Counted from the first letter of the stretch, positions 40,149-63,988 are shown. The stretch: DNA of 64,000 nucleotides from Omnitrophica bacterium GWA2_41_15 (GCA_919902675.1 CAKKRH010000032.1:1270-65269), one strand, 5' to 3'. Notes: a model not told the origin generated them from the sequence alone. Made by a program: numbers and translations.

Positions 40149-43100
40149 TCACAAGAGATAATTTACCAAGATCTTAATCTGTTCCGCATCGAATGGCTTA
40201 CCCACTACTGGTATGGCCTTCCTTTTAACATATTCCTTTAGCTTCTCAATTTCTTCCGCATATCCCGACATGATTAATATTGGCATATCTTTTGTCTGCG
40301 CGTTCTCCTTAAGCATACCAATTACTTCATAACCACTCATCGGCATTTTTATATCCAGCATTAACAAATCAGGAATAGCAGTTTTTATTTTTTCTAATGC
40401 TTCCTTTCCATCACCGGCTTCGCTAAAATTAGAATACCCGCTTGCCTGTAAAATTTTCCTTAAAACATTCCTCACTTCTGGCTCATCATCAACAATCATA
40501 ATGGACTTCTTTAATCTTGTTTCTCTTTCGCTAACACAAAAACCGTAGACCCGCTCCAATAAATCCTTACTATTACTTGCATCGCCAGGATAGGTAGCGT
40601 ATCCATATGAAAAACCCGTCCTAAGTTGTTCATCAATTTCAAAAACAGACACTTTTATAATCATCTTCAATCGTGTCATCATGTTGGATGCCTCTTGTTT
40701 GTTAACTTGTATAAAAACAATGATCTCATTTTCACTCCCTTTAATTACAAAATCCCTGCTTCGTATAACTTTTTCTAAAGCCGTCCCTATTGAAAGGAAA
40801 ACTTTTTGTACTCTATCTTTTCCGGACTCTTTCTCAACCTCTAAATAATTATCTAACCTGATAATAAATATTGAAAATTCCTTATTTTCTTTTTTAGCTT
40901 CTCTAATTCTCTCCTCTATCGTTTCGCGCAGGAACTCTTCTTTGTTATACTTCGGCAGGGTAAAGCTAAACTTGCTGCCCTTGCCAAGGCGGCTTTCCAC
41001 CCAAATCTTACCGTGATGCAGCTCAACCAGGGCTTTAGCTATAGAAAGGCCTAAACCCGTGCCTTTTTCGCCGAATCCGGGGACGCGGTCAAACTGCTGA
41101 AACTTGCTAAATACCTTAGGAAGGTCATCCCCTGAGATGCCCACACCAGTATCAGCTACGCCGCACTCTACTTCATTTTCTTTCTCTAAAACCGAAATCT
41201 CTATTGAGCCTTCTTTAGTGAATTTAAGAGCGTTGGCGATAAGGTTGGTCAAGACCTCGATTATCTTCTCCGTGTCAGCATAAATATACAGCTGTTTTTC
41301 AGGAAGGTTGACTTTCAATTCCAGCCCAGCATCTCTTGCGCGTTTAGAAAAAGAGGAGATAAGTCCACTAATTAAACTGTTAAGGTCAGCTGAGCCTCTT
41401 TTTAGCTCCACCTTTCCCGCCTCAATCTTGGAGATATCCAAGAGGCTGTTGATAATATTTGCCAATCTATCTATATTCTTCTTTGCGGTAGTAAGAATTT
41501 TTTCCTGCTTTTCATTTACCTTGCCGGCAAGTCCGTCTAAAACTAGAGCCAGGCCTTCTTTGGTAATAGAAAGCGGGGTCCTGAGTTCATGGGAGACTAT
41601 AGAGACAAATTCGGTCTTCATTCGATTCACTTCTTTCTCTTTGGTGATATCTCTAAGAATAATAACTATACCGATAGTTTCGTTCTTTGCGTTTCTCACC
41701 GGCGCTGTATCACAGTGTAAGGATACAGGCTCTCCCTGCACAGATACCGTTAGATCCTTAAAAACTAAACAGCTAATATCTGCACACTTTTTTAATACCT
41801 CCTCTAAACCAATGGCCTCGGCCTTTTCTTTCCATATTTTAGCCGTAACCTGCTCCTCGAACCTAAAACCCAACAACTGCCTGGCCCGCGGATTTATAAC
41901 CATCACCTCACCGCATTCATCCACCATCACCACGCCCTCAACCATGCTCTCTACCATACTCTCCATCTTTGACTTTTCAGCAGTGATCACTGCCCGCAGT
42001 CTTTCAATAGCATTAGAGGCCTGATTGGCAATGGTGCAGGTAAGCTCAATATCCTCTTCTGAAAAGGCATTCTCTTTACAGCTGGAGACATTAATCATCC
42101 CGACAGTTTTACCATGCGCTGTAAAAGGAACATTAAAGAAACTATGTAATTCCTTAAATTCCCTTTTTTCTTTATGGTTTTGGCTATCGGTAGCCAAACC
42201 ACGGCCTTCTGGCCTGGAGGTTACCTCTGTAGTGCTGGGAATAAGCATGGCGCTCAGGCGTTTCTTACGGATATTCTCTCCAGTTAAGATAGAGGTAGAG
42301 TCAATCAGGCCATCTTTTACCTCATCCGTAAATTTAGCACTTTCGGAATAGACGGGCTTTAGAGTAATGTTGGCGGTATGGGTATCAAATAAAAGCGAGG
42401 CGCAGATATCATAATTGATTGTCTTGAACAATGATTCCATGATAAACTTGAGTAACGTCTGATAATCCAAGGTATAAGAAATAGCATTGGAAATCTCATA
42501 TAAAACAGATAATTCCAAAGTCCTCTCTTTTACCTTCTTCTCGAGGTCTTTAGAATATGATTCAATCTCAGCCTTTGCTTTGGTAAGTTCGGCGGTTCGT
42601 TCTTCAATCATCCCTTCTAAACTTTTAGAATATTTTTCAATTTCTGCTTTTGCCCCTGCCAAATCCTCCATCATATTCAAGGTTGCTTCCTGGGTTTGGG
42701 CTAAATCTTTGGTGCGCTCCTTAGCCTTCTTCTCTAAAGTCTTGGCAAATTCCTCTAATTCTGCCTTAGACTTCTCTAAGTTAGCAATCAGCCCATTTAT
42801 CCGGCGCATATCGTGGGCTACGCCGACAATGCCGATTATTCGTCGTTCTTCAGGAGCTTTCAGCTTTCGGCTTTCAGCTTTCGGCTCTAGATCTTCTGCT
42901 GATAGCTGAGAGCTGATGGCTGATGGCTGACTCTCATACATTACTGAACCAGAGAAACTCATCGGTATCTTCCCGCCATTTTTAGTCACATAAATCAAAT
43001 CAAAATCGCGTACCGAACCTTCCTCAACCAGTTTCCTTAGGCGTGTTCCCTTAAGGAGAAGTTCTTCCTCAAAAATATTTTCCACCGGCTGACCGATCAG

Positions 43101-43589
43101 CTCTTCTTCGGTATATCCTAATAAATCTAAAGTGGCTTTATTTGCTGTCTTAATTACGCCTTCAGGGTCAACCACAATTAAGGTATCAATCATATTGGCG
43201 ATGATAGAGTCCACGTAGCCTTTATCCAGCAATTGCGCCCTCTGTCTTTTTAAATCCTGGAGCATTTGATTAAAGGCTTTAGCTAATTGGCCAATCTCAT
43301 CAAAGCTGGTGATTTTCACCTCTGCATCAAAATTGCCCTGCCGTACGGTAGAAATTGTTGAGAGGATTGATTTTAGCGGCTTATTTAAAAGAAAGTAAAA
43401 TACCACGATAATAAGGATGCTTAAACTTAAAGTATCTATGAACGCTTCCAGAATAGGATATTGCCTAATCGCCTCAAACTTAGCAAAGATAAACATAATT
43501 ATTAACTCAAATAACGCTACCATAGAAATGAGCTTAAAGGCAATACTAAATTTTAGGCGATGTTGTCTTTTCAAGCCGTTATCCTTCAT
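40149..43589 (-). CDS. Hybrid sensor histidine kinase (2TM-HAMP-PAS-coiled coil-GAF-PAS-HisKA-HATPase-degenerate GGDEF-REC)
   Basis: 1146 aa. H-box FVSIVSHELRTPL, G-box GTGLGLSIAK and a C-terminal REC (IMIVDDEP...LMLDIKMP). Between HATPase and REC lies a GGDEF-like fold with RSRD-FVIKG-SENEI in place of RxxD-x5-GGEEF. Confidence 0.85.
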   Translation of the reverse strand: MKDNGLKRQHRLKFSIAFKLISMVALFELIIMFIFAKFEAIRQYPILEAFIDTLSLSILIIVVFYFLLNKPLKSILSTISTVRQGNFDAEVKITSFDEIGQLAKAFNQMLQDLKRQRAQLLDKGYVDSIIANMIDTLIVVDPEGVIKTANKATLDLLGYTEEELIGQPVENIFEEELLLKGTRLRKLVEEGSVRDFDLIYVTKNGGKIPMSFSGSVMYESQPSAISSQLSAEDLEPKAESRKLKAPEERRIIGIVGVAHDMRRINGLIANLEKSKAELEEFAKTLEKKAKERTKDLAQTQEATLNMMEDLAGAKAEIEKYSKSLEGMIEERTAELTKAKAEIESYSKDLEKKVKERTLELSVLYEISNAISYTLDYQTLLKFIMESLFKTINYDICASLLFDTHTANITLKPVYSESAKFTDEVKDGLIDSTSILTGENIRKKRLSAMLIPSTTEVTSRPEGRGLATDSQNHKEKREFKELHSFFNVPFTAHGKTVGMINVSSCKENAFSEEDIELTCTIANQASNAIERLRAVITAEKSKMESMVESMVEGVVMVDECGEVMVINPRARQLLGFRFEEQVTAKIWKEKAEAIGLEEVLKKCADISCLVFKDLTVSVQGEPVSLHCDTAPVRNAKNETIGIVIILRDITKEKEVNRMKTEFVSIVSHELRTPLSITKEGLALVLDGLAGKVNEKQEKILTTAKKNIDRLANIINSLLDISKIEAGKVELKRGSADLNSLISGLISSFSKRARDAGLELKVNLPEKQLYIYADTEKIIEVLTNLIANALKFTKEGSIEISVLEKENEVECGVADTGVGISGDDLPKVFSKFQQFDRVPGFGEKGTGLGLSIAKALVELHHGKIWVESRLGKGSKFSFTLPKYNKEEFLRETIEERIREAKKENKEFSIFIIRLDNYLEVEKESGKDRVQKVFLSIGTALEKVIRSRDFVIKGSENEIIVFIQVNKQEASNMMTRLKMIIKVSVFEIDEQLRTGFSYGYATYPGDASNSKDLLERVYGFCVSERETRLKKSIMIVDDEPEVRNVLRKILQASGYSNFSEAGDGKEALEKIKTAIPDLLMLDIKMPMSGYEVIGMLKENAQTKDMPILIMSGYAEEIEKLKEYVKRKAIPVVGKPFDAEQIKILVNYLL
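42192..42216. repeat. 25-nt element inside the kinase CDS, identical to one in cheW
   Basis: agccaaaccacggccttctggcctg is identical to 50477-50501. On the coding strand it gives RPEGRGLA. A flanking tggYtttggct inverted partner is present in both copies. Confidence 0.9.
42854..42931. repeat. In-frame heptamer inverted array (CAGCTTT/CGGCTTT versus GCTGATA/GCTGATG) inside the kinase CDS
   Basis: Five units lie at 42854-42888 and five complementary-type units at 42898-42931. It encodes QPSAISSQLSAEDLEPKAESRKLKAPEE. The word family is the same as the 1527-1575 intergenic hairpin. Confidence 0.8.
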
Positions 43590-43738: not shown

Positions 43739-44374
43739 TTAACTTTTTTCTTTCAATTTTTGTTCCAGCTGACTAATCACTTCCTTCAGCTCCTTCATTT
43801 TAAGTTCTCTATCAACGGATAATTTATTGAATCGCTCAAGGTCAGCTGCTTTTTTCTCCAGCACTTGTTTGGCCTCGGTTATCTCTCGTGTGCGTTCTTC
43901 CACCTTTTTCTCCAGGCCTTCGTTAAGGACATTTAGCTCCTTATCCGCCTGCCTGAGTTCTTCGTTGGCTGCCTCAAGCTTTTCATTGGATGCGTTAATT
44001 TCCTTGGTTCGCGCCTGAATTTCTTGTTCTAAATCCGTACCCCAATTTTTAAGTTTTTCGGCCATCTTATTGAAATGGACAGCGATGAAACCAAACTCAT
44101 CCTTTCTTTCTTCGTTAGCTTTTACGGAGAAGTCTCTCTTTTCTACCGCGTTCATAACCTTAAGAAATTCATCCAGGGGCTTTTTTAACAACCTAAGGTA
44201 AATGATAGTAATAATCAGAATTAAAATAGAGATATCTATTATCGGCCCCAAAAAGGCGTATTTTTCTATTAAACTCCTTAGTGGGGCAAAATATTCGTAG
44301 ATAAGCATTATAAAAAGCTCTACAAGAGCAACTAAAAAGATAAGTTTCATTAAAATACTGTTACGGATTCTCAT
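43739..44374 (-). CDS. Membrane HAMP + coiled-coil protein without output domain
   Basis: 211 aa. It has 2 TM with a short loop, a HAMP (KKPLDEFLKVMNAVEKRDFS...FNKMAEKL), then coiled coil containing LEKKVEERTREI. The N-terminal module is paralogous to that of the kinase. Confidence 0.7.
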   Translation of the reverse strand: MRIRNSILMKLIFLVALVELFIMLIYEYFAPLRSLIEKYAFLGPIIDISILILIITIIYLRLLKKPLDEFLKVMNAVEKRDFSVKANEERKDEFGFIAVHFNKMAEKLKNWGTDLEQEIQARTKEINASNEKLEAANEELRQADKELNVLNEGLEKKVEERTREITEAKQVLEKKAADLERFNKLSVDRELKMKELKEVISQLEQKLKEKS

Positions 44375-44408
44375 GTTGATTTTCCTCCCGGTTGCGCTCT
44401 ATTGCATT

Positions 44409-44550
44409 CAGACTGTGTCACAATAGCCTTTTGTGTCATTGCGAGGTCGCCAAAGGCGACCGTGGCAATCTTTATTCCGACGATGTCTGAGTTAAAGATT
44501 GCTTCGCTGCGCTCGCAATGACACATGTTTTACCATTATGACACAGCCTG
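44409..44550. repeat. 142-bp compound inverted-repeat element (outer 37-nt arms, two inner hairpins)
   Basis: The arms are cagactgtgtcacaatagccttttgtgtcattgcgag (44409-44445) and ctcgcaatgacacatgttttaccattatgacacagcctg (44512-44550). The inner hairpins are gtcgcc/ggcgac and gcaatcttt/aaagattgc. Confidence 0.8.
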
Positions 44551-44592
44551 ATTGCGATATGTAATCAGCCGTAAATCCATCTTTGTATCGCG

Positions 44593-45396
44593 CTACTTGC
44601 GCTCCTGGTCCCAGCGCTCAATGAGGATATCTGAAGTCAAGATGCGCATCAGATGCATAAAGGCATAGATATAGTCCCTGAAGGCAAAACTGAGCAGCCG
44701 AACTTCTACAGTCTTGGAGGCGCTGTCTACGGCTTCCAGGGAAATATGCCCCTCTGAATATTTTATCTGCTGTAAATAGGGATACTGTTGGCCAAACGTG
44801 TCTTTAAGCCGCGTAATAATGGCTTCCAGCACCGGCCCTCCAACCACCGGCTTGAGATTAGCTAAAAGTAGTTGATTAAGAATAGTTGAAACTAAGAGAA
44901 AAAAATCCTCACGGCTGGCATAGCCGCAAAGCTGGATTAAGTAATTGATGAGATTTAAATTTACCAACCTTTTTTTTACTGAAGCCTGACCAGGCCTGCT
45001 TAAGAGCTCTTTTAAACCCTTAAGAAATTGGTCTTTGTTCGCGCCTTCAGTTAAAACATTATCTACGCCGGCATTGATTGCCGAGGCGATTATCTTAGCC
45101 GCCTTTTGAGAGGTGATTAAAATAGCGGTTGTTTGCCGCGTTGGCGCGGATGTTTTTAGGGTACGCAGCAAGGCTAAAGCACTCTCAATAGCCGGATCTA
45201 CACACAAAGACGAATCTATGCCTTGGTGCAGGCTTAAGAGCAAACAATCAAACTTTTCTTTTAACAAAGCAGCTTCTAATTTTTTTAGCTCGCCTTCTAT
45301 CACAAAATCTAAGTTTAGCTCTTTAAGCCAGTTCTCAAGGGTCTTGGCGGCAGATGGCTCTGGTTCGAAAATAATTAGCTTTTTAATCTCCTCCAT
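44593..45396 (-). CDS. Pseudo-receiver domain protein with uncharacterized C-terminal domain
   Basis: 267 aa with an N-terminal CheY-like fold pattern (KKLIIFEPEP...FDCLLLSLHQ). Ser replaces the phospho-acceptor Asp position. The C-terminal roughly 140 aa has no motif I recognise. Confidence 0.5.
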   Translation of the reverse strand: MEEIKKLIIFEPEPSAAKTLENWLKELNLDFVIEGELKKLEAALLKEKFDCLLLSLHQGIDSSLCVDPAIESALALLRTLKTSAPTRQTTAILITSQKAAKIIASAINAGVDNVLTEGANKDQFLKGLKELLSRPGQASVKKRLVNLNLINYLIQLCGYASREDFFLLVSTILNQLLLANLKPVVGGPVLEAIITRLKDTFGQQYPYLQQIKYSEGHISLEAVDSASKTVEVRLLSFAFRDYIYAFMHLMRILTSDILIERWDQERK

Positions 45397-45466: not shown

Positions 45467-45946
45467 TTAAAAGCTTATTTTCACCGTGACAATACCGGTA
45501 GCTACCGAGAATTCCACAGACCTGCCTACTGAACCGCCAATAGATTCCCCGATTAGTTTTATGCCTTCGTGTTTTAACTTCTTTTTAGCGCTTAAAACAT
45601 TTTCCTTACCGATATCTGAGTTAGAAAGGCCAAACATATTTGCCCCGCCCACCAGCTTGGCCTCTAAATCTTTTCTGTCAGCGCCAAGCGCCTGTATCTT
45701 TTCTAAGGCTGAATCTACGGCGGTGTCCACGTATTTGGCATCTGGCTGCCTGAGGGAAGCCGAAGGGTCGTGCGTTACAGACAAAGGCAACATCGCATGG
45801 ATCATTCCGCCAATTTTAAGTTTAGGCTCATATAGGGTAATCATAAGACAGGAGCCCACTGCACGGGAGTAAAGGTTACCCTCTTCTTTACTTACCACTA
45901 ATTCTCCCATTGGCACTTCAATTTCCATTATTTGCTCACAAGGCAT
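45467..45946 (-). CDS. cheD: Chemoreceptor glutamine deamidase CheD
   Basis: 159 aa: ...LYSRAVGSCLMITLYEPKLKIGGMIHAMLP... Confidence 0.85.
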   Translation of the reverse strand: MPCEQIMEIEVPMGELVVSKEEGNLYSRAVGSCLMITLYEPKLKIGGMIHAMLPLSVTHDPSASLRQPDAKYVDTAVDSALEKIQALGADRKDLEAKLVGGANMFGLSNSDIGKENVLSAKKKLKHEGIKLIGESIGGSVGRSVEFSVATGIVTVKISF

Positions 45947-46514
45947 TCAACAAGACCTTAACCTCTTCGGGCTTAAATATAAGCAGGAGATACCCTTTCA
46001 TACTCATGGCCTTGACCATTAGTTCAATTCTTACCACCAGCGCCTCAGCGCTATCCTTGGCAAAACCTGCGATGACCTCTTCTAATATCGCGCCAAACAT
46101 ACCGGAAGATAATTTAGGCATACCCTCGGTTATCTCTCCTTTAAGGCTGTTGGAGAGGACGGCTAAATAATTGCCTAAGAGGATATTCCCTACTTCTTTA
46201 AGTACCATTTCGTCAAAAGGAATTAATTTTTTGATTGTTCTTGGTTTTTTTTTCATCAGCAGATCACATAAATGAAATGAAGTTTCTTTAGGAAATAAGA
46301 AAAGGCTTGAACCTGTAACTCCTCCGGCAACGGGTAAAAAGACTCCTACTCCCAGCTCCTGAGAACCGATAAGGGGAGAAACCTTTCTGACATTGGTTAT
46401 TACGGGTTGAGAGAATACCACCCCTGTCTCCGCGCCGATGAGCTTAGACAAGGCGGCAGTGCAACGTTGACTGGCTGTTTCGTTAATCTTGTTTAATTTC
46501 TCCTCATTCGCCAT
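45936..46514 (-). CDS. cheC: CheY-P phosphatase CheC
   Basis: 192 aa with the CheC-type motif EVGNILLGNYLAVLSN. It is adjacent to cheD. Confidence 0.8.
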   Translation of the reverse strand: MANEEKLNKINETASQRCTAALSKLIGAETGVVFSQPVITNVRKVSPLIGSQELGVGVFLPVAGGVTGSSLFLFPKETSFHLCDLLMKKKPRTIKKLIPFDEMVLKEVGNILLGNYLAVLSNSLKGEITEGMPKLSSGMFGAILEEVIAGFAKDSAEALVVRIELMVKAMSMKGYLLLIFKPEEVKVLLNAL

Positions 46515-46538: not shown

Positions 46539-46615
46539 GATTACACAGATTTTTGAATAAGATTACACAGATACACTTTTAATCTGTGTAATCTGCTTTT
46601 ATAATCTGTGTAATC
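46539..46615. repeat. GATTACACAGAT box array (2 forward, 2 reverse), second locus
   Basis: gattacacagat at 46539-50 and 46561-72, atctgtgtaatc at 46582-93 and 46604-15. The last box overlaps the cheA stop. A single box also occurs at 45444-45455. Confidence 0.9.
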
Positions 46616-48242
46616 ATCGTATGTCTTTTTTTAACGCCAATTTCCTCTTAGAAAGTATGAGGTTAGCTGCATCTAAAATAAGCGCGACCTCGCCAGAGCC
46701 AAGAATAGTGCAGCCGGTAAAATATTTGCCCTCCTTGGCTAACCTTAACGGCTTATGCACAATCTCCTGGGTCTGGCCTAACTCGTCTACCGCCAGACCT
46801 AATCGGTCTTCATCCTTTCGGACAATGACGATAGGCTGTGAATTTTGGTCTAAGCGGGGCAGATTAAACAACTCATTTAAACGGGTGATAGGGATATCCT
46901 CGCCTTCAAAGACAATGGCCTCATAATTCAACATCCCCTTTATATCTTCTTTTTTTACATGAATTAACCTCTCCACATTGGCTAAAGAAATGGCGTATGC
47001 TTTAGGGCCTACCTTGACGAATAAGACCTTAAACACTGCCAGGGTTAAAGGTATCTCTAAGATAAATTTTGTGCCTTTTAAGGGAAGCGACTCTACTTTC
47101 ACTGAGCCGCCCAAAGATTCAATCCTTTGCTTGACGATATTCAGGCCAAAGCCTCTGCCTGAAATTTGGGTAACCTCTTTGGTAGTGCTCACTCCGGAAA
47201 AGAGCGCGTTAACCAATTCTTCCTGAGCTGGATGGCTGGAAATTAGCTTGAGCCTTGAGGCATACCTTTTTACTTCTTCCCAATCAATGCCTCTTCCATC
47301 ATCGCTAACCTCTATAACCGCAAATCCACGCGCTCTTTTAGCAGAGAGTTTTAAGGTGGCTTGAGAAGGTTTTTTCAGGCCCTCTCTTTCTTTGGGGATT
47401 TCTATGCCATGGTCAATGGCATTTCTGACTAAATGCACCAGGGGCTCAGCCAAGGCCTCCACAATTGAGCGGTCTAATTCTATGTCGCCGCCAACCATCT
47501 CTAAATTAACCTCTTTTTTCTCTTGCTTAGCTAAGTCTCTTACTAAGCGTGGAAAACGGTTAAAGACGAAATCTAAAGGCACGGTGCGCGACTGCATAAT
47601 ATTAAACTGCAGGTCAGAGACTAATCTGGTTAAGGTATCTACGAAACCGGAAAGCTCGGGGTTTTGCAAAGTTTCCTTAATCCGCTCTAATCCCAGTTTA
47701 TTAATCAACAGCTCTTCGGATAAGCGCATCAATAAATCCAGCCTTTCTACCTTAACCTCGATGCTCTTGATCTTCTCAAGAGAGGCAGGCTCTTCCAGGG
47801 ATCCCTCGGAAGCCGCGGTTTCGTCGTGCCTGCCTGCCGGCAAGGCAGGCGTCGTGCGTATTGCGTCGCACGTAGCCAGAGCCTGTAATTTTTTGACTAA
47901 ACCCGCGGTGTCCAGTTCTTCTTTATCCTTGGAAACTGCTTTTAGGCTTGCTTCTAAGGCATCAAAACATTCAAATAATAAATCGGCGCAAGCGCCAACC
48001 TTTAATTCCTTCTTTTTTGTCCTGACTAAGACATCCTCTATGGCATGGCATAGGGCAGAGGTCTTGAAATAACGCGCGATTCCGGATATGCTCTTGTAGG
48101 TATGGCAGGCGTGCAGCATAGGGCCAAACAGGATCAGATTACCCGGGGTCTTCTCTAATTTAATCAGAGAACTATTCAGGGTATTCAGGTATTGCCTTGC
48201 CTCTCTTAGGTAAGTGTCTTTGTATTTGTCTATAATCTGCAT
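46614..48242 (-). CDS. cheA: Chemotaxis histidine kinase CheA (no recognisable P2 domain)
   Basis: 542 aa. It has Hpt (ACHTYKSISG), dimerisation and HATPase domains (DHGIE...GRGFGLNIV) and a C-terminal CheW-like domain. The P1-P3 linker carries a palindromic low-complexity insert (47822-47872). Confidence 0.9.
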   Translation of the reverse strand: MQIIDKYKDTYLREARQYLNTLNSSLIKLEKTPGNLILFGPMLHACHTYKSISGIARYFKTSALCHAIEDVLVRTKKKELKVGACADLLFECFDALEASLKAVSKDKEELDTAGLVKKLQALATCDAIRTTPALPAGRHDETAASEGSLEEPASLEKIKSIEVKVERLDLLMRLSEELLINKLGLERIKETLQNPELSGFVDTLTRLVSDLQFNIMQSRTVPLDFVFNRFPRLVRDLAKQEKKEVNLEMVGGDIELDRSIVEALAEPLVHLVRNAIDHGIEIPKEREGLKKPSQATLKLSAKRARGFAVIEVSDDGRGIDWEEVKRYASRLKLISSHPAQEELVNALFSGVSTTKEVTQISGRGFGLNIVKQRIESLGGSVKVESLPLKGTKFILEIPLTLAVFKVLFVKVGPKAYAISLANVERLIHVKKEDIKGMLNYEAIVFEGEDIPITRLNELFNLPRLDQNSQPIVIVRKDEDRLGLAVDELGQTQEIVHKPLRLAKEGKYFTGCTILGSGEVALILDAANLILSKRKLALKKDIR

Positions 48243-48261: not shown

Positions 48262-49335
48262 CTACCTGCTCAACAGGCAGGCTTCTTCTAATATCGCCCT
48301 GGCTATCTCTTGCGCAGGAAGCACTTTATCCGCCAATCCCGCGTCAATCACGGCCTTGGGCATACCAAAGATTAACGCGGATTTATCCTGCGCGATGGTC
48401 CTGCCGCCTGCCTCTTTAATAGAACGCATACCTTCTAAGCCATCGTTGCCAATACCGCTTAAGATAATGCCGATAGAATTTTGCTGATAAATACGGCTTG
48501 CGGATTTCATCGCTATATCAATAGAGGGGCTTAAGGTATCGGGTGAAACCTCTTCTAAAGTAGTAAAATTATTCTCTCTGCTTTCTACTCTTTCTTCTCT
48601 GCTCTTTATTTTTAAATTAAAACCGCCGGGAGCAAGATATGCGGCTGGGGAGAAAATAGTTTCTCCGTCGCAAGCTACCCTGGTCTTAAGTGAGCAATTT
48701 TTGTTTAAATGCCCGGATAAACTTTCGCTAAAAAACCTGTTTGGCATATGTTGAGCTATCAAGATCGGAAGAGAAAAATCAGCAGGCAAAGAGGGCAAAA
48801 TCATTTCCAGTGTTTGCGGCCCGCCGGTAGAGGCGCCTATAACAATAATTTTATCTTCTGCTAATAACTTAGGTGAAGGATGAAACGGCTTAAGCCTAAA
48901 AGCTTTAAATCTTTTCAAATTAACCTTAGAGGCGGCTTTTACTTCTTGAGTAAGCCTTTCTTTTATCTTTTCTATATCTAAAGATAGCTCTCCTGATGGC
49001 TTAAGTACAAAACTTACTGCGCCCAGCTCCAGGCATTCTAAAGCAATACCTGCCTCTTCCTGGCTATAGGCAGAAAGTATCACTACCGGAGTGGGAAAAT
49101 CACGCATTATATGTTTTAAGGTAGTTAAGCCATCCCATCCCGGCATTGCCAAATCCAGGATTATGCAATCGGGTTCAACAGAAGGGATTTTTCTTAACGC
49201 CTCTTGGCCGCTGGAGGCTGTCCCTACTACCTTAATCTGGGGGTCTTTATTCAGGAAATCCGAGACTAAGCTGCGGATAAAGAGGGAATCATCTATGATC
49301 AGGACTTTTATGGGGAGAAGACCTGGGGTATTCAT
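48262..49335 (-). CDS. cheB: Chemotaxis methylesterase CheB
   Basis: 357 aa: REC (VLIIDDS...IILDLAMP) plus a methylesterase domain (GASTGGP...). Confidence 0.9.
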   Translation of the reverse strand: MNTPGLLPIKVLIIDDSLFIRSLVSDFLNKDPQIKVVGTASSGQEALRKIPSVEPDCIILDLAMPGWDGLTTLKHIMRDFPTPVVILSAYSQEEAGIALECLELGAVSFVLKPSGELSLDIEKIKERLTQEVKAASKVNLKRFKAFRLKPFHPSPKLLAEDKIIVIGASTGGPQTLEMILPSLPADFSLPILIAQHMPNRFFSESLSGHLNKNCSLKTRVACDGETIFSPAAYLAPGGFNLKIKSREERVESRENNFTTLEEVSPDTLSPSIDIAMKSASRIYQQNSIGIILSGIGNDGLEGMRSIKEAGGRTIAQDKSALIFGMPKAVIDAGLADKVLPAQEIARAILEEACLLSR

Positions 49336-49377: not shown

Positions 49378-49752
49378 TTACTCTCTCTTGATATACTTGT
49401 TTAGCACTTGTTCAATCTGCGCGTCATCGAAGGGTTTAACAATATAGTCCTCGACGCCTAATTCCTTACAGCGATTAATCATCGCATCATGCCCCACAGC
49501 AGTAATCATAATTATCTTGGCCTCGGGCACGGCATCCTTTATCCGCTTAAGGACATCCACTCCCTCATTTTCGCCTTCAGGCATAATGATATCTAAGAGC
49601 ACCAAATCCGGTATTGCCTTCTTAAATTGTTTAAGGGCGGTTGTGCCTGAATCCGCTTCGATTACTTGCGAGTCTGGGATAGTCTTTTCCACAATATTTT
49701 TAAGCACCATGCGAATAAATGGCGAATCGTCCACAATGAGAATCTTTTTCAT
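49378..49752 (-). CDS. cheY: Chemotaxis response regulator CheY
   Basis: 124 aa: MKKILIVDDSPFIR...VLLDIIMP...K. Confidence 0.88.
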   Translation of the reverse strand: MKKILIVDDSPFIRMVLKNIVEKTIPDSQVIEADSGTTALKQFKKAIPDLVLLDIIMPEGENEGVDVLKRIKDAVPEAKIIMITAVGHDAMINRCKELGVEDYIVKPFDDAQIEQVLNKYIKRE

Positions 49753-49804: not shown

Positions 49805-50554
49805 TCATTTGCGCCTCCCACTTTCTTTTGCTTTTGCCGGCTTACTTTGCGTTTTTTGGCTTTGGCTATGGATGCGGCTATTTGGTTGCCCACCATCGCC
49901 CTCTGGCTTATGGCTGCGGCTATTGGAAGCCGCACCATCGCCCTCTGGCTTATCGGAGGCAAAACCACCGCCCTCTGGCTTATGAGCTAAGGTTATGCGC
50001 GCTAACTTGCTGAGATCCTCTTCAGAAAGCACCTTCTTTAAGTCCAACAGCATAATCAGGCGCTCATCCAAGGTGAGCACTCCGCTGATATAGGCGCGGT
50101 CAATTTTGGTAATCAGATGGGGCGTGGCCTTTATCCCTGTGCGGGGAATCCTTAAGACCTCAGTAACCTCATCTACCAAAACGCCGTAGAGGTTCCCCTC
50201 CTGTCCGGTAATAACGATATGCTTACTTTCCACTGGCTTTTTTACCGGCAGAAAGAAACGCTCTTTGAGGTCAATGACAATAATGATTTCGCCCCTGATA
50301 TTAGTTACCCCTTTGATGAAATTAGGCGAATCCGGTATGGGTGTAACCGCTCCGACACGGACAATCTCTCGGACTTCATTAATATCTACGCCAAAGGACT
50401 CGTCTTCTAAACTAAAGACGACTAATTGGATGAGCTCTGCCTCCGGGGTGATGGGTTTGTGGCTTTGGCTAAAGGAAGCCAAACCACGGCCTTCTGGCCT
50501 GTGCCTTTCCTGAGCGGCTTGGATATTGCTGGTATCTTTAATTTCAGTCGGCAT
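49805..50554 (-). CDS. cheW: CheW coupling protein with repeat-derived N- and C-terminal extensions
   Basis: 249 aa with core LVVFSLEDESFGVDINEVREI...PNFIKGVTNIRGEII. The N-terminal extension contains HRPEGRGLASFSQSHKP. The C-terminal tail has HKPEGGG/DKPEGDG/HKPEGDG repeats. Confidence 0.85.
   Translation of the reverse strand: MPTEIKDTSNIQAAQERHRPEGRGLASFSQSHKPITPEAELIQLVVFSLEDESFGVDINEVREIVRVGAVTPIPDSPNFIKGVTNIRGEIIIVIDLKERFFLPVKKPVESKHIVITGQEGNLYGVLVDEVTEVLRIPRTGIKATPHLITKIDRAYISGVLTLDERLIMLLDLKKVLSEEDLSKLARITLAHKPEGGGFASDKPEGDGAASNSRSHKPEGDGGQPNSRIHSQSQKTQSKPAKAKESGRRK
50477..50501. repeat. 25-nt element inside cheW, identical to the one in the kinase gene
   Basis: agccaaaccacggccttctggcctg is identical to 42192-42216. 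Confidence 0.9.
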
Positions 50555-50555
50555 T

Positions 50556-53500
50556 TTATTTATCCTCCCCTTCCTCTTCCACTACCTCCTGAGCAGAAAC
50601 CTTAAACCTGCGCAAAGCGGTGCGCAATTGCTCGGCTAAGCCGGACAAGTTTTGCGCGGATGAGGTCATCTGCTGCATCGCTTGAGTCTGCTGTTGAATG
50701 GAAGTAGACATCTCGGATGAGCCTGTAGCTGCCTGCTCAGCAGTCAAAGCGATTTCCTCAATAGTCTTGGCTACCTGTTGCGCGCCTCCTGCCTGCGCGG
50801 TAGTGGCAGCGGAAACTTCCTGGGCTTTAGAAGTAATTTCCTGAGTGCCTACGCCAATCTGGCCTAAGATAGCCAGCGCCTGATTAACGATATCAATACT
50901 CTCGGAAACCTGCTGGGTTCCGGCAGTCATACCCGTAACCACCTCAGCGGTAGAATCAGTTATCGTGCTCACCATACCTTCAATTTGCACCGCGGCTTTT
51001 TTGGTCCCTTCAGCTAATTTTCTGATTTCATCAGCAACTACGGCAAAACCCCGGCCTGCCTCTCCGGCATGGGCGGCTTCAATAGCGGCGTTTAAGGCCA
51101 AAAGATTAGTCTGGTCAGCAATATCTTTGGTCGTACCGACGATTACCGCGATTTCCTTGGCGCGCTTATCTAAGTCTTTAACTGTAGTAGTATTGGCTTT
51201 AACAATATCATCTATGGTCTTCAATCTTCCGGCTGCCTGCTTGCCTGATTCCGTGCCTTTCTCTGCCAGTTTGGCTGCTTCCTGAGTAGCCTCAGCCGCT
51301 GCCTTGGAATTAGCCGCGCCTTGTTGTATAGACTTAGAAAGCTCAGCTACTACTTTGGTAGAGGTCTCTAATTTCTTAGACTGCTCCCTTGAGCCGGCAG
51401 CTATTTCTTGGGTGGTCTTGGCAACTTGGCCTAAGGCAGTATTTACCTGCCGGGAGGCATTAGATAATTGATTGGAAGAGCTAGCAACCTTGGTAGAGCT
51501 TTCCATAGCCAAGCGAATAGTTTTTCCTAAGTCATCAAAGGATTTGTTTAAGGCATCAGTCAAGGTCTTGATATCTCCTCTTGCCTCCAAGGCATATCTT
51601 TGTGAAATGTCTCCTTTGGAGAGGGCAAGGCTAAGCCGGATTACTTCCTGAACCGGTTTGGCGATAGAATCAATCAAGGTGTTCAAGGTGTCCACGATAT
51701 TTTTCCAACTGCCGCCAACGCCTTCCACTTTTGCCCGTTCGCTAAGCTTTCCTTCCACACCAGCTACCTGAGCCACTCGGGAAACTTCATTGGCTAAGCG
51801 GTTTAAATTATCCACCATGCTATTTAGTGTATCTTTTAACTGTAGAATCTCCCCTGCTGCTTCTACAGTTATCTTTTGAGTTAAGTCTCCCATAGCAATA
51901 GCTGTGCCAACCTTAGCAATGTTTCTCACCTGAGCAGTAAGGTTAGCCGCCATAGCATTGACCCTGTCAGTAAGGTCCTTCCATGTCCCGGCTACGCCCG
52001 GCACTGCTGCCTGTCCGCCGAGTTTTCCTTCCGTGCCTACTTCTTTGGCTACGCGGGTAACTTCTGCGGCAAAAGTATTTAATGAATCCACCATAGCATT
52101 GATCGTATTCTTAAGCTCTAAGATTTCACCCATTGCCTCTACGGTAATCTTCTGAGCCAGGTCCCCCTTGGCAACTGCGGTGGTTACTAAAGCAATGTTA
52201 CGCACCTGCGAGGTAAGGTTAGCCGCCATAGCATTAACCCTGTCAGTAAGGTCCTTCCATGTCCCGGCTACGCCCGGCACTGCTGCCTGTCCGCCGAGTT
52301 TTCCTTCCGTGCCTACTTCTTTGGCTACGCGGGTAACTTCTGCGGCAAAAGTATTTAGTGAATCCACCATTTTATTGATGGTATCTTTTAAGGCTAACAT
52401 CTCTCCCTTAACCTCTACAGTGATTTTTTGCGCCAGATCTCCGTTAGCAACTGCGGTAGTAACCTGAGCAATGTTACGCACCTGAGCAGTAAGATTTCCC
52501 GCCATAGCATTGACGTTATCCGTAAGGTCTTTCCATGTCCCGCCAACACCCGGCACTGCTGCCTGTCCGCCGAGTTTTCCTTCCGTGCCTACTTCCTTGG
52601 CCACGCGGGTAACTTCTGCGGCAAAAGTATTTAGTGAATCCACCATTTTATTGATGGTATCTTTTAAGGCTAACATCTCTCCCTTAACCTCTACAGTGAT
52701 TTTTTGCGCCAGATCTCCGTTAGCAACTGCGGTAGTAACCTGAGCAATGTTACGCACCTGAGCAGTAAGATTTCCCGCCATAGCATTGACGTTATCCGTA
52801 AGGTCTTTCCATGTCCCGCCAACACCCGGCACTGCTGCCTGTCCGCCGAGTTTTCCTTCCGTGCCTACTTCCTTGGCCACGCGGGTAACTTCTGCGGCAA
52901 AAGTATTTAGTGAATCCACCATTTTATTGATGGTATCTTTTAACTGTAGCACCTCTCCGGCAGCCTCAATGGTAATCTTTTGCGCCAGGTCTCCTTTGGC
53001 AACTGCGGTGGTTACTAGAGCAATGTTACGCACCTGCGAGGTAAGGTTAGCCGCCATAGCATTGACTCTATCGGTTAAATCTTTCCATAGACCGCCAACA
53101 CCCGGCACTGTTGCCTGGCCGCCTAACTTTCCATCCGTGCCTACTTCTTTGGCTACGCGGGTAACTTCTGCGCCAAAGGTGTTAAGTGAATCTACCATTT
53201 TATTAATCGTATTCTTCAACTCCAAGATTTCACCTTTCGCCTCAACCGTAATCTTCTGCGCCATATCTCCGTTAGCAACTGCGGTAGTAACCTGAGCGAT
53301 GTTACGCACCTGACTGGTTAAGTTTCCCGCCATAGCATTGACGTTATCCGTAAGGTCTTTCCATGTCCCGCCAACACCCGGCACTGCTGCCTGTCCGCCG
53401 AGTTTTCCTTCCGTGCCTACTTCCTTGGCCACGCGGGTAACTTCTGCGGCAAATAGGTTTAAACTATCCACCATCTTATTGATGGTCTCTTTTAACTGTA

Positions 53501-54524
53501 GCACCTCTCCGGCAGCCTCGATGGTAATCTTTTGCGCCAGGTCTCCCTTGGCAACTGCGGTAGTAACTAAAGCAATGTTGCGCACCTGTGCAGTAAGGTT
53601 AGCTGCCATAGCATTAACCCGGTCAGTAAGGTCCTTCCATGTCCCGGCTACGCCCGGCACTGCTGCCTGTCCGCCGAGTTTTCCTTCCGTGCCTACTTCC
53701 TTGGCCACGCGGGTAACCTCTGCGCCAAAAAGAGTAAGATTATCTACCATTTTATTGATTGTATTCTTTAGCTCCAGAATTTCACCTTTCGCCTCAACCG
53801 TAATCTTCTGCGCCAGATCTCCGTTAGCAACTGCGGTAGTAACCTGAGCGATGTTACGTACCTGACTGGTTAAGTTTGCTGCCATAGCATTAACGTTATC
53901 TGTAAGGTCCTTCCAAAGACCGGCTACTCTTTCTACCTTTGCCTGGCCGCCTAATTTTCCTTCTGTGCCTACCTCTTTGGCAATACGGGTAACTTCTGCG
54001 CCAAAAGTATTTAGTGAATCCACCATAGCATTAATGGTATTTTTAAGTTCAAGTATCTCGCCTCTTGCTTCCACGGTAATCTTCTGAGATAAATCTCCTT
54101 TGGCTACTGCAGTAGTAACCTGAGCGATATTACGCACCTGAGCGGTAAGGTTTGAAGCCATGGCATTGACGTTGTCAGTAAGATCCTTCCATGTCCCGGC
54201 CACACCCTGAACTGCTGCCTGGCCGCCGAGTTTACCTTCCGTGCCTACTTCTTTGGCCACGCGGGTAACCTCACCGCTAAAAGCTGTTAAGAGATCAACC
54301 ATACTGTTATAGGAATCCGCTAATTCGCCAAAGATATCTTCTCTTCCTGATTTTAACTTTTTAGTGAGATCGCCTTTTCTCACAGCTTCTAAGGCCTCTA
54401 ATAAATCTCTTAACTGTTTTTCTGACCCCTCGCTAAAGCCCTCTTCTCTTTCCAATGTTGCAACATCAGCCTCTGATTCGCCAAATAAAGCCTTCTTTGC
54501 CGCTTGTCTAATTGGCTTTGCCAT
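50556..54524 (-). CDS. Soluble methyl-accepting chemotaxis protein with poly-HAMP array
   Basis: 1322 aa with no hydrophobic TM segment. It has an N-terminal HAMP, ten tandem 92-aa units and a C-terminal MCP signalling domain ([24 protein letters not shown]). Confidence 0.9.
51525..54284. repeat. Ten tandem 276-bp (92-codon) units encoding paired HAMP domains
   Basis: The unit is [84 protein letters not shown]. Units 1-9 are highly similar and unit 10 is diverged. Confidence 0.9.
52327..52943. repeat. Perfect period-276 tandem duplication (2.2 units, 100% identity)
   Basis: 52327-52667 is identical to 52603-52943 base for base. The identical shadow ORFs 52428-52634 and 52704-52910 in the track confirm the 276-nt offset. 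Confidence 0.95.
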
Positions 54525-54559
54525 TTTTTTCCTCCTCCATTTAGTAGCGTTTAGTTTTT

Positions 54560-55378
54560 CTATCCGCTATTAACTATTTCCTTCGCAATCCTTCTATACG
54601 TCCTTCCTGCATCACTAAAAGGCGCATAATGAGAAATGGGCATTCCCTTCATCTGCGCTCTACAGATTTTTCGCGAAAACGGTATGGTGAAAATTTTAAC
54701 TTGCGGCATATTATTTTCGCTTAAGAATTCCTTTAATAGCTTTTTAATTTCCCATGCCTGGTATTTATCCAAGACTGATATGGAGGTTTCCCTTAAAAGC
54801 ATCATTAACAGATTGATTTCTACCCCCAGTTCTTTATTCAGCTCTATAACTAGGCTCTTCAGGGTCGCCAGCGTCTCATAGGCAAATATCCCTGAATCTA
54901 AGGGAATGATAATATTTTCTGAAGCAACAATTCCATTAATCATAAGCAGTGTTGAGCCCGGAGGAACATCTATCAACACATAATCGAAATGCCCCGTTAT
55001 GCCAGCTAAATTTTGTCTCAATAAAGCTGTATTATTGGCTTGACCAGCCATATGGGTTTCCGCGGCCAGAAGATCTAAAGAGGAAGGCGCAAGATATATC
55101 TTTGAGCTTGTTTCCAATATTGTTTCCTCTATATTCTTTTGCCCAAAGAGGACATCATAAATTGAGAAATCAACGGTTTTTCTATCAATGCCCAAACCAG
55201 AGGTGGCATTACCTTGTGGATCTAAATCTATAACCAATACTTTCTTATTCATCTTGGTAAACCACCCGGCGATGTTTAGACAAGATGTTGTTTTTCCTGT
55301 ACCTCCTTTATGGTGGACAAAGGCGATACTCATTGGTTTTTTCGTATCAGTTGATGTTTTTGTGAACATATTTTTCAC
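54560..55378 (-). CDS. ParA/MinD-family ATPase at the head of the che cluster (PpfA/ParC-like position)
   Basis: 272 aa with deviant Walker [11 protein letters not shown] and DLDPQGN. It lies immediately upstream of the soluble MCP. Confidence 0.8.
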
Positions 55379-55447
55379 TTAATGGATCCTCAAATAAAAA
55401 AACCCAAGCTCTAATTATTTAGAAACTTGGGTTTAACCTTATATTTT

Positions 55448-55546
55448 CCCGTTTTTCCCGTAAAAAACGGGATCCCGACTTTGTCGGGAAAATCCCTCCG
55501 CTTTAATAATAAAGCGGAATGTTTTACTCTCTCTCTCTCTCTCTCT
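55448..55546. repeat. Three consecutive small hairpins followed by a (CT)10 microsatellite
   Basis: cccgttttt/aaaaacggg (55448-55471), tcccgac/gtcggga (55473-55489), tccgcttta/taaagcgga (55497-55518), then ctctctctctctctctctct (55527-55546). Confidence 0.85.
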
Positions 55547-55608
55547 GCTAAAGCCATTAGAATTATGGCATCTTCTTTCACTTATTGTTCCCCATTTTTA
55601 TGTATGGC

Positions 55609-55833
55609 CTATTTACCCGACAACTTACTACGAATCAGACGCAAGGTATAACCTTCAAGCATCATTGCTTCTATCTTCTTTAACGTCTCGGAAACCACCG
55701 CCTCATCGTACAACCTGACACCACCACCCTTTTTAACCACTGTAAGCAACCCAATAGTAGTATAGTAGTTTAACGTATGATAAGCAAGATTAAATTTTTT
55801 AACTATGTTTTTTGCGGAAATAGGTTTTCCCAT
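55609..55833 (-). CDS. Small MerR-type HTH protein
   Basis: 74 aa: ISAKNIVKKFNLAYHTLNYYTTIGLL...GGGVRLYDE. Confidence 0.55.
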   Translation of the reverse strand: MGKPISAKNIVKKFNLAYHTLNYYTTIGLLTVVKKGGGVRLYDEAVVSETLKKIEAMMLEGYTLRLIRSKLSGK

Positions 55834-56123
55834 TCTATAGAGTCTTTTTATCTAACTACCGCGCACTTGACCTTTCGACTGCCTAAAGTTAGAGTAATTA
55901 CTACAATTGTCTAATTTGTATTATTTATATCACATTTTAAATATTTGTCAAGAATATTTTCCTTTGTTGTTTTTTTAAACCGCAAAAACGTAAAATAGCC
56001 GTTAGAAGTAAATGTTCCGCGGAGACGCAGAAAAAAACTTATTGAATTTCCGCGCTTCAGCGGAGAGTATTTATCTTGATTCAACGTTTCGGCGGTTGCA
56101 AAACCGTAGAGGCGTAAAAAGAA

Positions 56124-56226
56124 TTTAAACCGCAAAAACGCAAAATGGAGCTTGATGAACGCGATTAATCAAAAAAATAAAAACCGAAAAACAAGCGTTT
56201 TATTTGCTTTTAGGTTTTTCGGTATT
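56124..56226. repeat. About 105-bp A-rich repeat element, copy 2
   Basis: tttaaaccgcaaaaacgcaaaatggagcttgatgaac..attaatcaaaaaaataaaaaccgaaaaac...tttgcttttaggtttttcggt. It aligns with 40027-40135. An extra half-site aaaccgcaaaaacgtaaaat occurs at about 55978. Confidence 0.75.
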
Positions 56227-56266
56227 TCGGTTTTTAGTTTTTCGATTCTATCTGATACTTCCTTAT

Positions 56267-56584
56267 TTACACTACCGCCCGGAGTTGAATCCTTAAGGAG
56301 TTGATGAAAGATACTAAACACAGCCTGTTTTCAAAGGAAAAATACATACTTCCTTTTATCCGGCAGTAAAATATCTCCATCCGGTTCTTTTTATCCTGCT
56401 TCTTAAAGACATAAAGGTTAGGCTGGGGCAGGGCTTTATTCTCGCCTTTGGCCTCAAAAACCCGGCAGACCAAATGACGGTTAACCGTGGTCCGGATGCC
56501 TTCCTGCTCAGACAATTCCGAGCAGGCTAACACCCTCTGGCCTTTGGCTAGTGAGGTAATATTCCTGAATTGCAGGTCTCGCAT
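56267..56584 (-). CDS. Hypothetical protein (no recognisable motif; weak gene call)
   Basis: 105 aa from ATG 56584 (MRDLQFRNITSLAKGQRV...). There is no SD sequence. The ORF-track GTG start lies inside the hairpin element. Confidence 0.35.
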   Translation of the reverse strand: MRDLQFRNITSLAKGQRVLACSELSEQEGIRTTVNRHLVCRVFEAKGENKALPQPNLYVFKKQDKKNRMEIFYCRIKGSMYFSFENRLCLVSFINSLRIQLRAVV

Positions 56585-56585
56585 T

Positions 56586-56641
56586 TTAATGAGCACGTAA
56601 CTTATAGAACGATAGTGTTCATAAATTACTGTGCGAATTAA
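56586..56641. repeat. About 60-nt hairpin element (copy 2 of the 30838 family)
   Basis: ttaatgagcacgtaacttat...ctgtgcgaattaa. The termini ttaatgagcacg and ctgtgcgaattaa are shared with 30838-30903. Confidence 0.75.
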
Positions 56642-56921
56642 TCCCGCCGAATGAGGCGGGATAAGCTCCTTTAAGGTAAAACAGATGCAAATGTTAACTA
56701 TACTTTTTAAAAGTGCTTAAGAATAGCTCAAAAAAAAGGTTTTTCTGCTTTTGCTTGTCTACTTCTTCTCTCCTGCTACTCAAAGTATACCATTAATATA
56801 TATGGTTTTCAACCCCATATTTGGCTTTTCGAGAAAGCGCTTTCTTTAAAAACACGGATACACACGGATTAAAATGCGCGGATACGCACAGATAAAAAAC
56901 ATAGATGAGCGCGAATAAAAA

Positions 56922-63625: not shown

Positions 63626-63988
63626 CTACATTTCAAATTCACCTTGATGATATCGTAGAATAAAATCCTCCATATTTTTCTTTGCCTGCTCAATTTCCTT
63701 TTCAGGTAATTCTTGCGTCTTCTTCTTAAAAGCATGGAGCAATATAATATTGCCTTGCAGAAAAAAGAAATAAAAAATACGCGCGTTACCCGCTTGGAGA
63801 CTTACCCTTAACTCTCTGATTTTATCTTTTACGGAATCAGCATAAGGCCGCAATAAGTTTGGGCCGTGTTCTTCTAAAAGCGCGACATAGCGCCAAACTT
63901 TTGCCCGGGATTTTTTATCCATCCGTTGAATGAAATCTTTTACCGGATAATCTCCCCTATGCGTGGGATAAAATTTAATTTTATACAT
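63626..63988 (-). CDS. Gp49/HigB-like toxin, second copy
   Basis: 120 aa: EEHGPNLLRPYADSVKDKIRELRV....IFYFFF..NIILLHAFKKKT. About 40-45% identical by eye to 16510-16869. Confidence 0.75.
   Translation of the reverse strand: MYKIKFYPTHRGDYPVKDFIQRMDKKSRAKVWRYVALLEEHGPNLLRPYADSVKDKIRELRVSLQAGNARIFYFFFLQGNIILLHAFKKKTQELPEKEIEQAKKNMEDFILRYHQGEFEM

Follow-up and report, generated by a model that had tools for sequence, protein, structure and literature searches.

The window analysed here is a stretch of 64,000 nucleotides from Omnitrophica bacterium GWA2_41_15 (GCA_919902675.1 CAKKRH010000032.1:1270-65269), in which a ParA-like ATPase and a soluble methyl-accepting chemotaxis protein (MCP) with a long stack of HAMP domains are encoded side by side at 50,556 to 55,378. 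The pairing of the ATPase with the poly-HAMP MCP is genuine and conserved, and the ATPase is a dedicated partner of this receptor. We consider it rather probable that the locus is a parA-mcp-che operon in which ParA positions or partitions the receptor arrays by way of a short peptide at the MCP N-terminus, as PpfA does with TlpT. Two points are worth following, namely a peptide at the receptor's N-terminus that goes with ParA, and a chemoreceptor whose HAMP array is of kinase type.

The locus is a chromosomal chemosensory operon of a Candidatus Omnitrophota bacterium, a source to which an exact protein match points. On the minus strand, from 55378 down to 45467, the gene order is parA-mcp-cheW-cheY-cheB-cheA-cheC-cheD, and the Pfam matches bear out the initial annotation of this DNA, in which a ParA/MinD-family ATPase preceded the MCP and cheW-Y-B-A-C-D followed it. 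The ATPase (54560-55378, minus strand; 272 aa) matches AAA_31 (1.7e-45) and CbiA (3.4e-18), while the MCP (50556-54524, minus strand; 1322 aa) matches HAMP, HAMP_2 and MCPsignal and has no hydrophobic segment. The two genes are separated by 35 nt containing a GGAGG site, the start of cheW overlaps the stop of mcp, and the genes are closely packed throughout. The cluster encodes no receptor other than the poly-HAMP MCP. Elsewhere the window holds chromosomal housekeeping genes (alaS, recA, hisD, trpE, thiC, pfk, accC, efp, lepA, lepB, pgsA and plsY).

The ParA has a deviant Walker A motif with the signature residues Lys24 and Lys29, which places it among the ParA/MinD deviant Walker A ATPases. 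In the family alignment K24, K29, D51/D53 and D137 are invariant in 22 members, and the signature IPFSRK stands in place of the IPRNVR of Soj-type ParAs (compared with 40 ParB-linked ParAs). The best solved relatives are Soj proteins (E=1e-33). Generic ParB-linked ParAs share 29-35% identity with it and plasmid ParAs no more than 34.5%, compared with 56-91% within the protein's own family.

Relatives at 56-91% identity were found in at least 14 ParA-linked loci (the window and the related loci L003-L007, L009, L010-12, L013 and L098-L102), whose record labels are Omnitrophota, Scalindua, Pirellulales, Planctomycetota and Elusimicrobia. Wherever a locus has enough sequence, the gene directly after parA encodes a poly-HAMP MCP, and cheW-Y-B-A-C-D follow parA-mcp wherever the contig extends. 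No ParB or parS partner accompanies the ATPase. The ParB box II motif is found in none of the window and 16 related loci, compared with 60 of 80 generic ParA loci, and none of these 80 control loci contains an MCP; the control set came from a metagenome scan with the ParA alignment and generic Walker patterns and holds only distant Soj-like ParAs. Thus the two marks of a ParABS partition ATPase, an adjacent ParB and close similarity to Soj or plasmid ParAs, are both absent, and the marks of a PpfA-like array ParA (a che cluster, an adjacent cytoplasmic MCP and no ParB) are present. The pairing proposed by the initial annotation, with a ParA other than a partition ParA and no parB nearby, therefore holds.

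The second line of evidence is the start of the MCP. Residues 1-15 (54480-54524, minus strand) form a basic peptide with the conserved pattern R6-x3-[RK][KR]-A-[LI]-F14, followed by an acidic linker (residues 16-36; 54417-54479, minus strand). The start M-x4-R-x3-[RK][KR]-A-[LI]-F is shared by 13 of 14 ParA-linked MCPs, with the motif from residue 6 in 12 and from residue 7 in one; the MCP of L013 has a diverged form, R6...R11-P-F-F14. The peptide lies about 20 residues before HAMP1, and the linker between the two is conserved as well. The motif is absent from the poly-HAMP MCPs that lack a ParA (0 of 3; L014, L016 and L017) and from poly-HAMP kinases (0 of 107). Among the best matches to the tail plus first HAMP in a library clustered at 50% identity, 11 of 149 carry it, and all of these are MCPs or N-terminal fragments, with no kinase among them. 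A search with the N-terminal 128 residues of the MCP returned fragments of about 220 aa matching only the HAMP repeats and was uninformative.

ParA/MinD ATPases are activated by partners with short, positively charged N-terminal peptides, as shown for ParB, MinE, ParG and PomX and proposed for TlpT and McdB (PMC7993993). In our control loci a related basic motif, +GLG+GLxAL[LIF], occurs in 45 of 58 ParB N-termini. From these sequence patterns we infer that the MCP tail is a ParA-interacting, ATPase-activating element. The co-variation of peptide and ParA, together with the lack of ParB, fits positioning of the PpfA/TlpT kind.

The MCPs of L014, L016 and L017 are sister proteins that share about 78% identity with the window MCP and have 19 HAMPs; there is no parA upstream of them, and their clusters lack CheB and CheD. 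Their gene order is MCP-CheW-CheY-CheA-CheC-histidine kinase, and their N-terminal tails are long and basic but do not contain the KALF motif. By analogy with FrzCD, these tails might bind DNA directly.

Composition and length of the HAMP array

Three parts make up the MCP: a tail of 36 aa, the 21 HAMPs and a signalling domain of class 44H. Pfam reports HAMP in 10 stretches, HAMP_2 in 10 stretches and MCPsignal at residues 1091-1259. The poly-HAMP array (residues 37-1002; 51519-54416, minus strand) contains 21 HAMPs of 46 aa each. The motif EV[TS]R[VI]A occurs 10 times with a spacing of exactly 92 residues, and residues 37-956 are divided into ten 92-aa di-HAMP units, with one extra canonical HAMP at residues 957-1002; read from the start, the array is an N-terminal canonical HAMP followed by ten pairs of a non-canonical and a canonical HAMP. 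At the DNA level, Tandem Repeats Finder gives a 276-bp period and 8.6 copies. The further Pfam matches on the MCP (ATG17_like, SpoIIID, HTH_6 and others) are rejected as by-products of the repeats, with no stretch passing alone, and the same kind of pseudo-hits was noted for AskA and AskB (PMC7643160). An AlphaFold2 model of residues 1-220, run as a single chain with no alignment, was unusable (mean predicted local distance difference test score 55), and the solved AskA structure is the better guide.

No transmembrane segment is found in the MCP, in which the highest Kyte-Doolittle mean over 19 residues is 1.1 and no window exceeds 1.6, and no ligand-binding or sensor domain is recognisable. 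Either feature would have told against the soluble receptor described in the initial annotation, which in these respects stands.

The signalling (methyl-accepting, MA) domain covers residues 1003-1322 (50559-51518, minus strand), with Glu1155 at the tip and only two sites resembling the methylation consensus at residues 1231 and 1294. The N-arm of its hairpin has 153 residues, about 22 heptads. Its best solved match is TM1143 of T. maritima (2CH7), a soluble Thermotoga receptor of class 44H; query residues 10-306 align with chain residues 13-309 with no net change of length. Because of this arm length and this alignment, the domain fits class 44H by sequence.

Soluble poly-HAMP proteins have been divided into two families of independent origin (Coles et al. 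2026, PMC13446029). Chemoreceptor arrays consist of HAMPs of type A, which includes HAMP2 of Aer2, and type B, and the Trp of kinase arrays is replaced in them by Phe; kinase arrays consist of types C and D with a conserved Trp, and a D1 HAMP is found only at the array start (PMC13446029). AskA has D1 plus ten C-D2 pairs, giving 21 HAMPs, and AskB has 31 (PMC13446029). The array of the window MCP matches AskA (PDB 9TRK) with E=2.3e-85 over query residues 3-273, with 55% identity over six HAMPs and 75% over HAMP4-6. When 1.5 MCP units were compared, the match to AskA was at E=9e-83 and that to Aer2 at E=0.011. Trp is present in 10 of 10 non-canonical HAMPs (G-x-W-K-D), and hybrid kinases with GAF and HisKA domains account for 107 of the best 120 matches that the array has in the database. 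Judged by these proxies (the 9TRK match, the Trp in all ten units, the far stronger score against AskA than against Aer2 and the dominance of kinases among its homologues), the array is of kinase type.

The sequence of the array is thus AskA-like (types C/D), and in place of the GAF, DHp/CA and receiver domains that would follow in a kinase there is MCPsignal. Conversely, the methyl-accepting domain expected downstream of a chemoreceptor array is present and the type A/B HAMP sequence, as judged by proxies, is not. The receptor would therefore be a hybrid, in which an AskA-type array with a 1 + 10x2 layout is fused to a 44H methyl-accepting output. As such it appears to conflict with the division into kinase and chemoreceptor arrays drawn by Coles et al.

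The number of HAMPs is not firm. The initial annotation gave about 21 HAMPs, as one N-terminal HAMP plus ten 92-aa units; this is what the window encodes, and the figure for the population is 19-21. The DNA repeat units are 60-94% identical to one another, and array units 7 and 8 share an exact direct repeat of 341 bp at an offset of 276 bp (52327-52943), which makes the copy number ambiguous between 19 and 21 HAMPs. Four other contigs encode a 1230-aa version with one 92-aa unit fewer, that is, 19 HAMPs. For example, L101, which has the 19-HAMP version, is identical to the window at all 5,965 of 5,965 compared flanking bases. In L102, the 2.155-Mb contig_28 of ERZ1286166, the gene is that of the window less a single 276-bp unit, and the junction falls within the 341-bp repeat. 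These same-population contigs derive from Hainich groundwater metagenomes. The difference is either polymorphism or assembly ambiguity.

Among relatives the length varies further. The 90%-identity protein cluster of the window MCP also holds full-length 9-HAMP versions. L010 and L011 match at 9807 of 9812 flanking bases, and their arrays differ by two di-HAMP units (11 vs 7 HAMPs). The counts among relatives are 7, 9, 11, 13, 17, 19, 21 and 23, odd without exception, with 23 in the longest family members counted (L013 and L098) and 9-19 in the homologues from Candidatus Scalindua. The array length thus varies by whole di-HAMP units, which keeps the parity of the proposed rotational toggle, and since the change is in di-HAMP steps the sign of the output would be preserved. 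That poly-HAMP arrays vary in length had already been noted (Coles et al. 2026, PMC13446029).

Two ideas of the initial annotation do not fare well here. It had suggested that the HAMP rod could act as a molecular ruler, and a length that varies from 7 to 23 HAMPs among close relatives argues against a ruler of fixed length. It had also described a very long HAMP rod partitioned by a ParA as an unusual soluble array. Soluble proteins with long HAMP chains, however, date back in the literature to 2010, and a detailed study of 2026 described 5501 of them, including 723 chemoreceptors (PMC13446029); besides the 21 HAMPs of AskA and the 31 of AskB, there are the 23 HAMPs of L013 and L098 and a relative of 2120 aa.

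This last protein (P0123; L015, 264-6626) is a HAMP/MCPsignal relative far longer than the window MCP. It starts with MDLKKSRKPGKSVFFG, a variant of the ParA-linked motif shifted by one residue, and its contig has only 263 bp upstream. In another locus from an Omnitrophota metagenome-assembled genome (MAG; L002, 1213-2480), the MCP frame is interrupted: a stop comes after the N-terminal peptide MTRPERAPGRKAY, and the last di-HAMP unit and the MA domain resume in a different frame. The repeat array seems to have collapsed during assembly, and poly-HAMP lengths from short-read MAGs should be treated with caution.

Proposed mechanism and rival explanations

In the mechanism that we propose, the MCP dimer would form a continuous four-helix rod of stacked HAMP bundles, as in 9TRK, whose array is 55-75% identical and forms a continuous dimeric four-helix rod. 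From helix geometry the rod is estimated at about 50 nm of HAMPs plus a signalling hairpin of about 23 nm. Together with CheW and CheA the hairpin tips would build a cytoplasmic array, for which CheB, CheD and CheC would supply adaptation and phosphatase functions. At the far end of the rod the N-terminal peptide (R6...K10-K11-A-L-F14) would most likely bind the ATP-bound ParA dimer and stimulate its ATPase. ParA would then position the arrays, and partition them at division, by a PpfA/TlpT-like diffusion ratchet on a cellular matrix, which is probably the nucleoid. The HAMP stack would serve as relay and spacer, its length stepping by one di-HAMP unit with the sign of the output kept.

Several observations weigh against this reading, and the first of them concern the DNA-binding surface. 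HpSoj binds DNA non-specifically via K199, K227, K230 and K247 (PMC6393308), and of this basic patch only the K230 equivalent is kept in the ParA family. At the K227 position the family has Phe in 20 of 21 members, where ParB-linked ParAs have Arg in 39 of 40; at the K247 position it has mostly aromatic residues, compared with Lys in 14 of 40 ParB-linked ParAs and other residues in the rest. Since the equivalents of K227 and K247 are replaced, the canonical signature gives nucleoid binding no support. In addition, the MCPs that lack a ParA make up a separate clade whose clusters differ in gene content, and the co-variation of peptide and ParA may partly be phylogeny. Finally, no CheR, flagellar or pilus gene is found among the scanned open reading frames (ORFs) of the 64-kb window. 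CheR is likewise encoded in none of the related clusters (including L010-L013, L098 and L100). CheB and CheD are present, and the methyltransferase must lie elsewhere or be absent.

Other basic residues of the ParA are kept or gained. The K230 position has Lys in 16 of 21 family members (Arg or Lys in 39 of 40 ParB-linked ParAs), and helix alpha9 gains the basic residues R236, K/R240 and K244, most notably where an invariant Glu of Soj is Lys or Arg in 17 of 21 members. A rearranged basic surface is possible from the alignment, and nucleoid binding by this ParA, though outside the canonical signature, is plausible.

One alternative, which we hold to be unlikely, is that the engagement of ParA is itself the signal: ParA-ATP, or nucleoid-bound ParA, would alter the first HAMP through the peptide, and the change would be relayed to CheA, in which case the array would report nucleoid, cell-cycle or ATP status. 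DNA binding by the N-terminal tail of FrzCD has been proposed to feed its di-HAMP (PMC13446029; PMC12077210), the conserved peptide lies only about 20 residues before HAMP1 with a linker that is conserved too, and the odd HAMP counts would preserve the sign of an output. However, an acidic linker that is flexible would transmit mechanical change poorly, the partners of ParA elsewhere are cargo adaptors without signalling, and a passive spacer would tolerate variable length equally.

A different destination for the arrays seems comparably improbable. Here the ATPase would resemble ParC of Vibrio and send the arrays to the pole or another landmark rather than the nucleoid. The genes for ParC-type ATPases likewise lie in che clusters (PMC11407121), the aromatic equivalents of K227 and K247 occur across the family, and type IV pilus clusters stand divergently beside parA in L009 and L098. 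Nevertheless, the cluster encodes no ParP-like adaptor, its CheW-domain proteins being CheW and CheA only; the receptor is soluble, with the ParA-associated peptide on the MCP itself as in TlpT; and helix alpha9 is more basic than in Soj. That the gene is an ordinary chromosome or plasmid partition ParA that merely lies beside a che operon is very improbable: its closest solved structures are chromosomal Soj proteins and several sources annotate its relatives as "chromosome partitioning protein", but the family is set apart from ParB-linked ParAs by the identities given above and by its own signature residues, always adjoins a poly-HAMP MCP, lacks ParB in 17 loci and, in the window, lies in a housekeeping chromosomal region (alaS, recA, lepA, efp).

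Positioning by ParA, which remains our preferred reading, leaves room for a bolder idea. Poly-HAMP arrays have no input domain, and their role "remains unclear" (PMC13446029). ParA, and through it the state of the nucleoid or of ATP, could be the missing input of an AskA-type relay that would have been moved onto a chemoreceptor output, and an array length tunable in di-HAMP units could set the distance and gain between the ParA-coated matrix and the CheA baseplate; we regard this as more doubtful still than either the signalling or the landmark explanation. If true, a chemosensory array would sense its own positioning machinery and not a chemical. The initial annotation's suggestion of temperature or osmolarity sensing would rest on a distant analogy to fungal group III kinases.

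For the question of what feeds poly-HAMP arrays, this family offers a defined, conserved N-terminal peptide and a genetically linked partner protein. It also places an AskA-type array on an MCP output in several uncultivated phyla; as such an array drives MCP output, the array module is portable between outputs, and signalling models must fit both. The positioning of cytoplasmic arrays by ParA, so far studied in Rhodobacter, would also cover Omnitrophota, Elusimicrobia and the anammox Planctomycetota. Should all of this prove wrong, the locus is another member of two known families.

The che genes and flanking elements

The remaining genes of the cluster are all on the minus strand. CheW (49805-50554; 249 aa) matches Pfam CheW at 1.2e-36, and the CheY-like single-domain response regulator (49378-49752) matches Response_reg at 1.5e-26. 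In Pfam searches, the CheB methylesterase (48262-49335) contains REC and CheB_methylest, and the CheA histidine kinase (46614-48242) contains Hpt, H-kinase_dim, HATPase_c and the CheW-like P5. The CheC-like phosphatase (45936-46514) has a weak CheC match (3.8e-4), and its orthologues in L098, L100 and L005, at 33-45% identity, have clear ones. CheD (45467-45946) matches at 6e-27. The gene content fits a chemosensory system of the F1 type (CheC and CheD with a 44H receptor).

The window CheW has tails of low complexity made of HKPEG(D/G)G repeats, and its C-terminus is basic; long low-complexity tails are also found on the CheW of L003, L013, L002, L100 and L017. Many CheW tails end in a cluster of Lys and Arg (KKSKKRKRN, RRRKNK, KKKKTKN), whether or not parA is nearby, and may be a second element for binding the nucleoid or a partner.

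In some relatives other genes adjoin the operon. In L009 (1-8433) and L098 (1-7851), both Planctomycetota-like, the pilus cluster directly upstream of parA, in divergent orientation, includes secretin, PilB-like and PilC-like proteins, pilins and PilM/N/O, and in L013 a REC-T2SSE gene lies downstream. In some lineages the pathway may control pili rather than flagella.

Upstream of parA in the window, a 74-aa helix-turn-helix ORF of the MerR_1 family (55609-55833, minus strand; Pfam 5.9e-9) lies between plsY and parA and is present in the same-population contigs L101 and L102. As a candidate ParB-like adaptor it was rejected: no equivalent was found in L001-L006 by tblastn, and the 81-aa MerR protein encoded immediately upstream of parA in L007 shows no detectable relationship to it. 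The spacer at 55400-55560 is rich in hairpins, with overlapping palindromes at 55453-55492 and hairpins at 55490-55525; a stem followed by a T-run lies about 20 nt before the GTG start of parA, and an (AG)9 run near 55530-55550. Within 54400-56700 there are 5 terminator-like sites observed, compared with 1.8 expected. Further upstream, the 23-nt direct repeat TTTAAACCGCAAAAACG(T/C)AAAAT occurs in intergenic sequence at 55974-55996 and 56124-56146, 150 bp apart, and an imperfect inverted repeat of 26-31 nt lies at 56162-56247.

Downstream of cheD are three signalling genes (43739-45396 and 40149-43589, minus strand) that are not conserved in relatives. They encode a 267-aa protein with no Pfam or NCBIfam match, whose N-terminus by eye resembles a receiver with Ser replacing the phospho-accepting Asp; a 211-aa HAMP coiled-coil protein with two transmembrane segments; and a 1146-aa hybrid kinase (HAMP-PAS-GAF-PAS-HisKA-HATPase-GGDEF-REC). 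The 267-aa and 211-aa genes, conserved in no related locus, were rejected as parts of the system. At the window edge (63626-63988, minus strand) there is a 120-aa ORF of a Gp49/HigB-like toxin family (Pfam 2.4e-25). Rfam and tRNA scans gave a tRNA-Gly as the sole match.

Comparison with known systems

That che operons can contain homologues of ParA, and that these are linked to cytoplasmic receptors, was established in 2006-2012, and such homologues occur in the che operons of 37% of surveyed species (PMC2829493). A literature search of incomplete coverage found no paper linking poly-HAMP proteins with ParA. Both parts of the system are of known kinds; what appears to be undescribed is that they occur together and that the HAMP stack is of kinase-type origin.

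PpfA positions cytoplasmic arrays (PMC3964821, PMC11407121). In the PpfA-TlpT system of Rhodobacter sphaeroides, as in the window, a ParA-like ATPase is encoded beside a soluble MCP in a che operon with no ParB, and TlpT, like the window MCP, has a positively charged N-terminal extension proposed to activate the ATPase. Unlike the window MCP, TlpT is 567 aa long and has no poly-HAMP array, and the organisms are distant. The likeness to PpfA is one of gene context and of the MCP N-terminus, and the window ParA has altered residues at the Soj-type DNA-binding positions.

In the ParC/ParP system of Vibrio, too, a ParA-like ATPase in a chemotaxis cluster governs the placement of arrays, but those are membrane arrays at the pole, on which ParC acts via ParP and HubP, and the che cluster of the window has no ParP-like gene. 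FrzCD of Myxococcus xanthus shares with the window MCP its solubility, a basic N-terminal tail, a di-HAMP and an MA domain, and the nucleoid is the scaffold of its arrays. It differs in binding DNA directly and in having two HAMPs and no ParA partner, whereas the tail motif of the window MCP tracks with parA.

The type A/B chemoreceptor arrays and Aer2 are, like the window MCP, soluble, with alternating canonical and non-canonical HAMPs and no upstream sensor, but the published arrays have Phe instead of Trp. The hybrid histidine kinases AskA and AskB of Myxococcus xanthus (9TRJ, 9TRK) are soluble as well, and AskA has the same type and layout of array with 21 HAMPs. Their output is GAF-HisKA-HATPase-REC, in contrast to the 44H domain of the window MCP that would feed CheA, and all 107 homologous kinases examined are without the N-terminal peptide that accompanies ParA.

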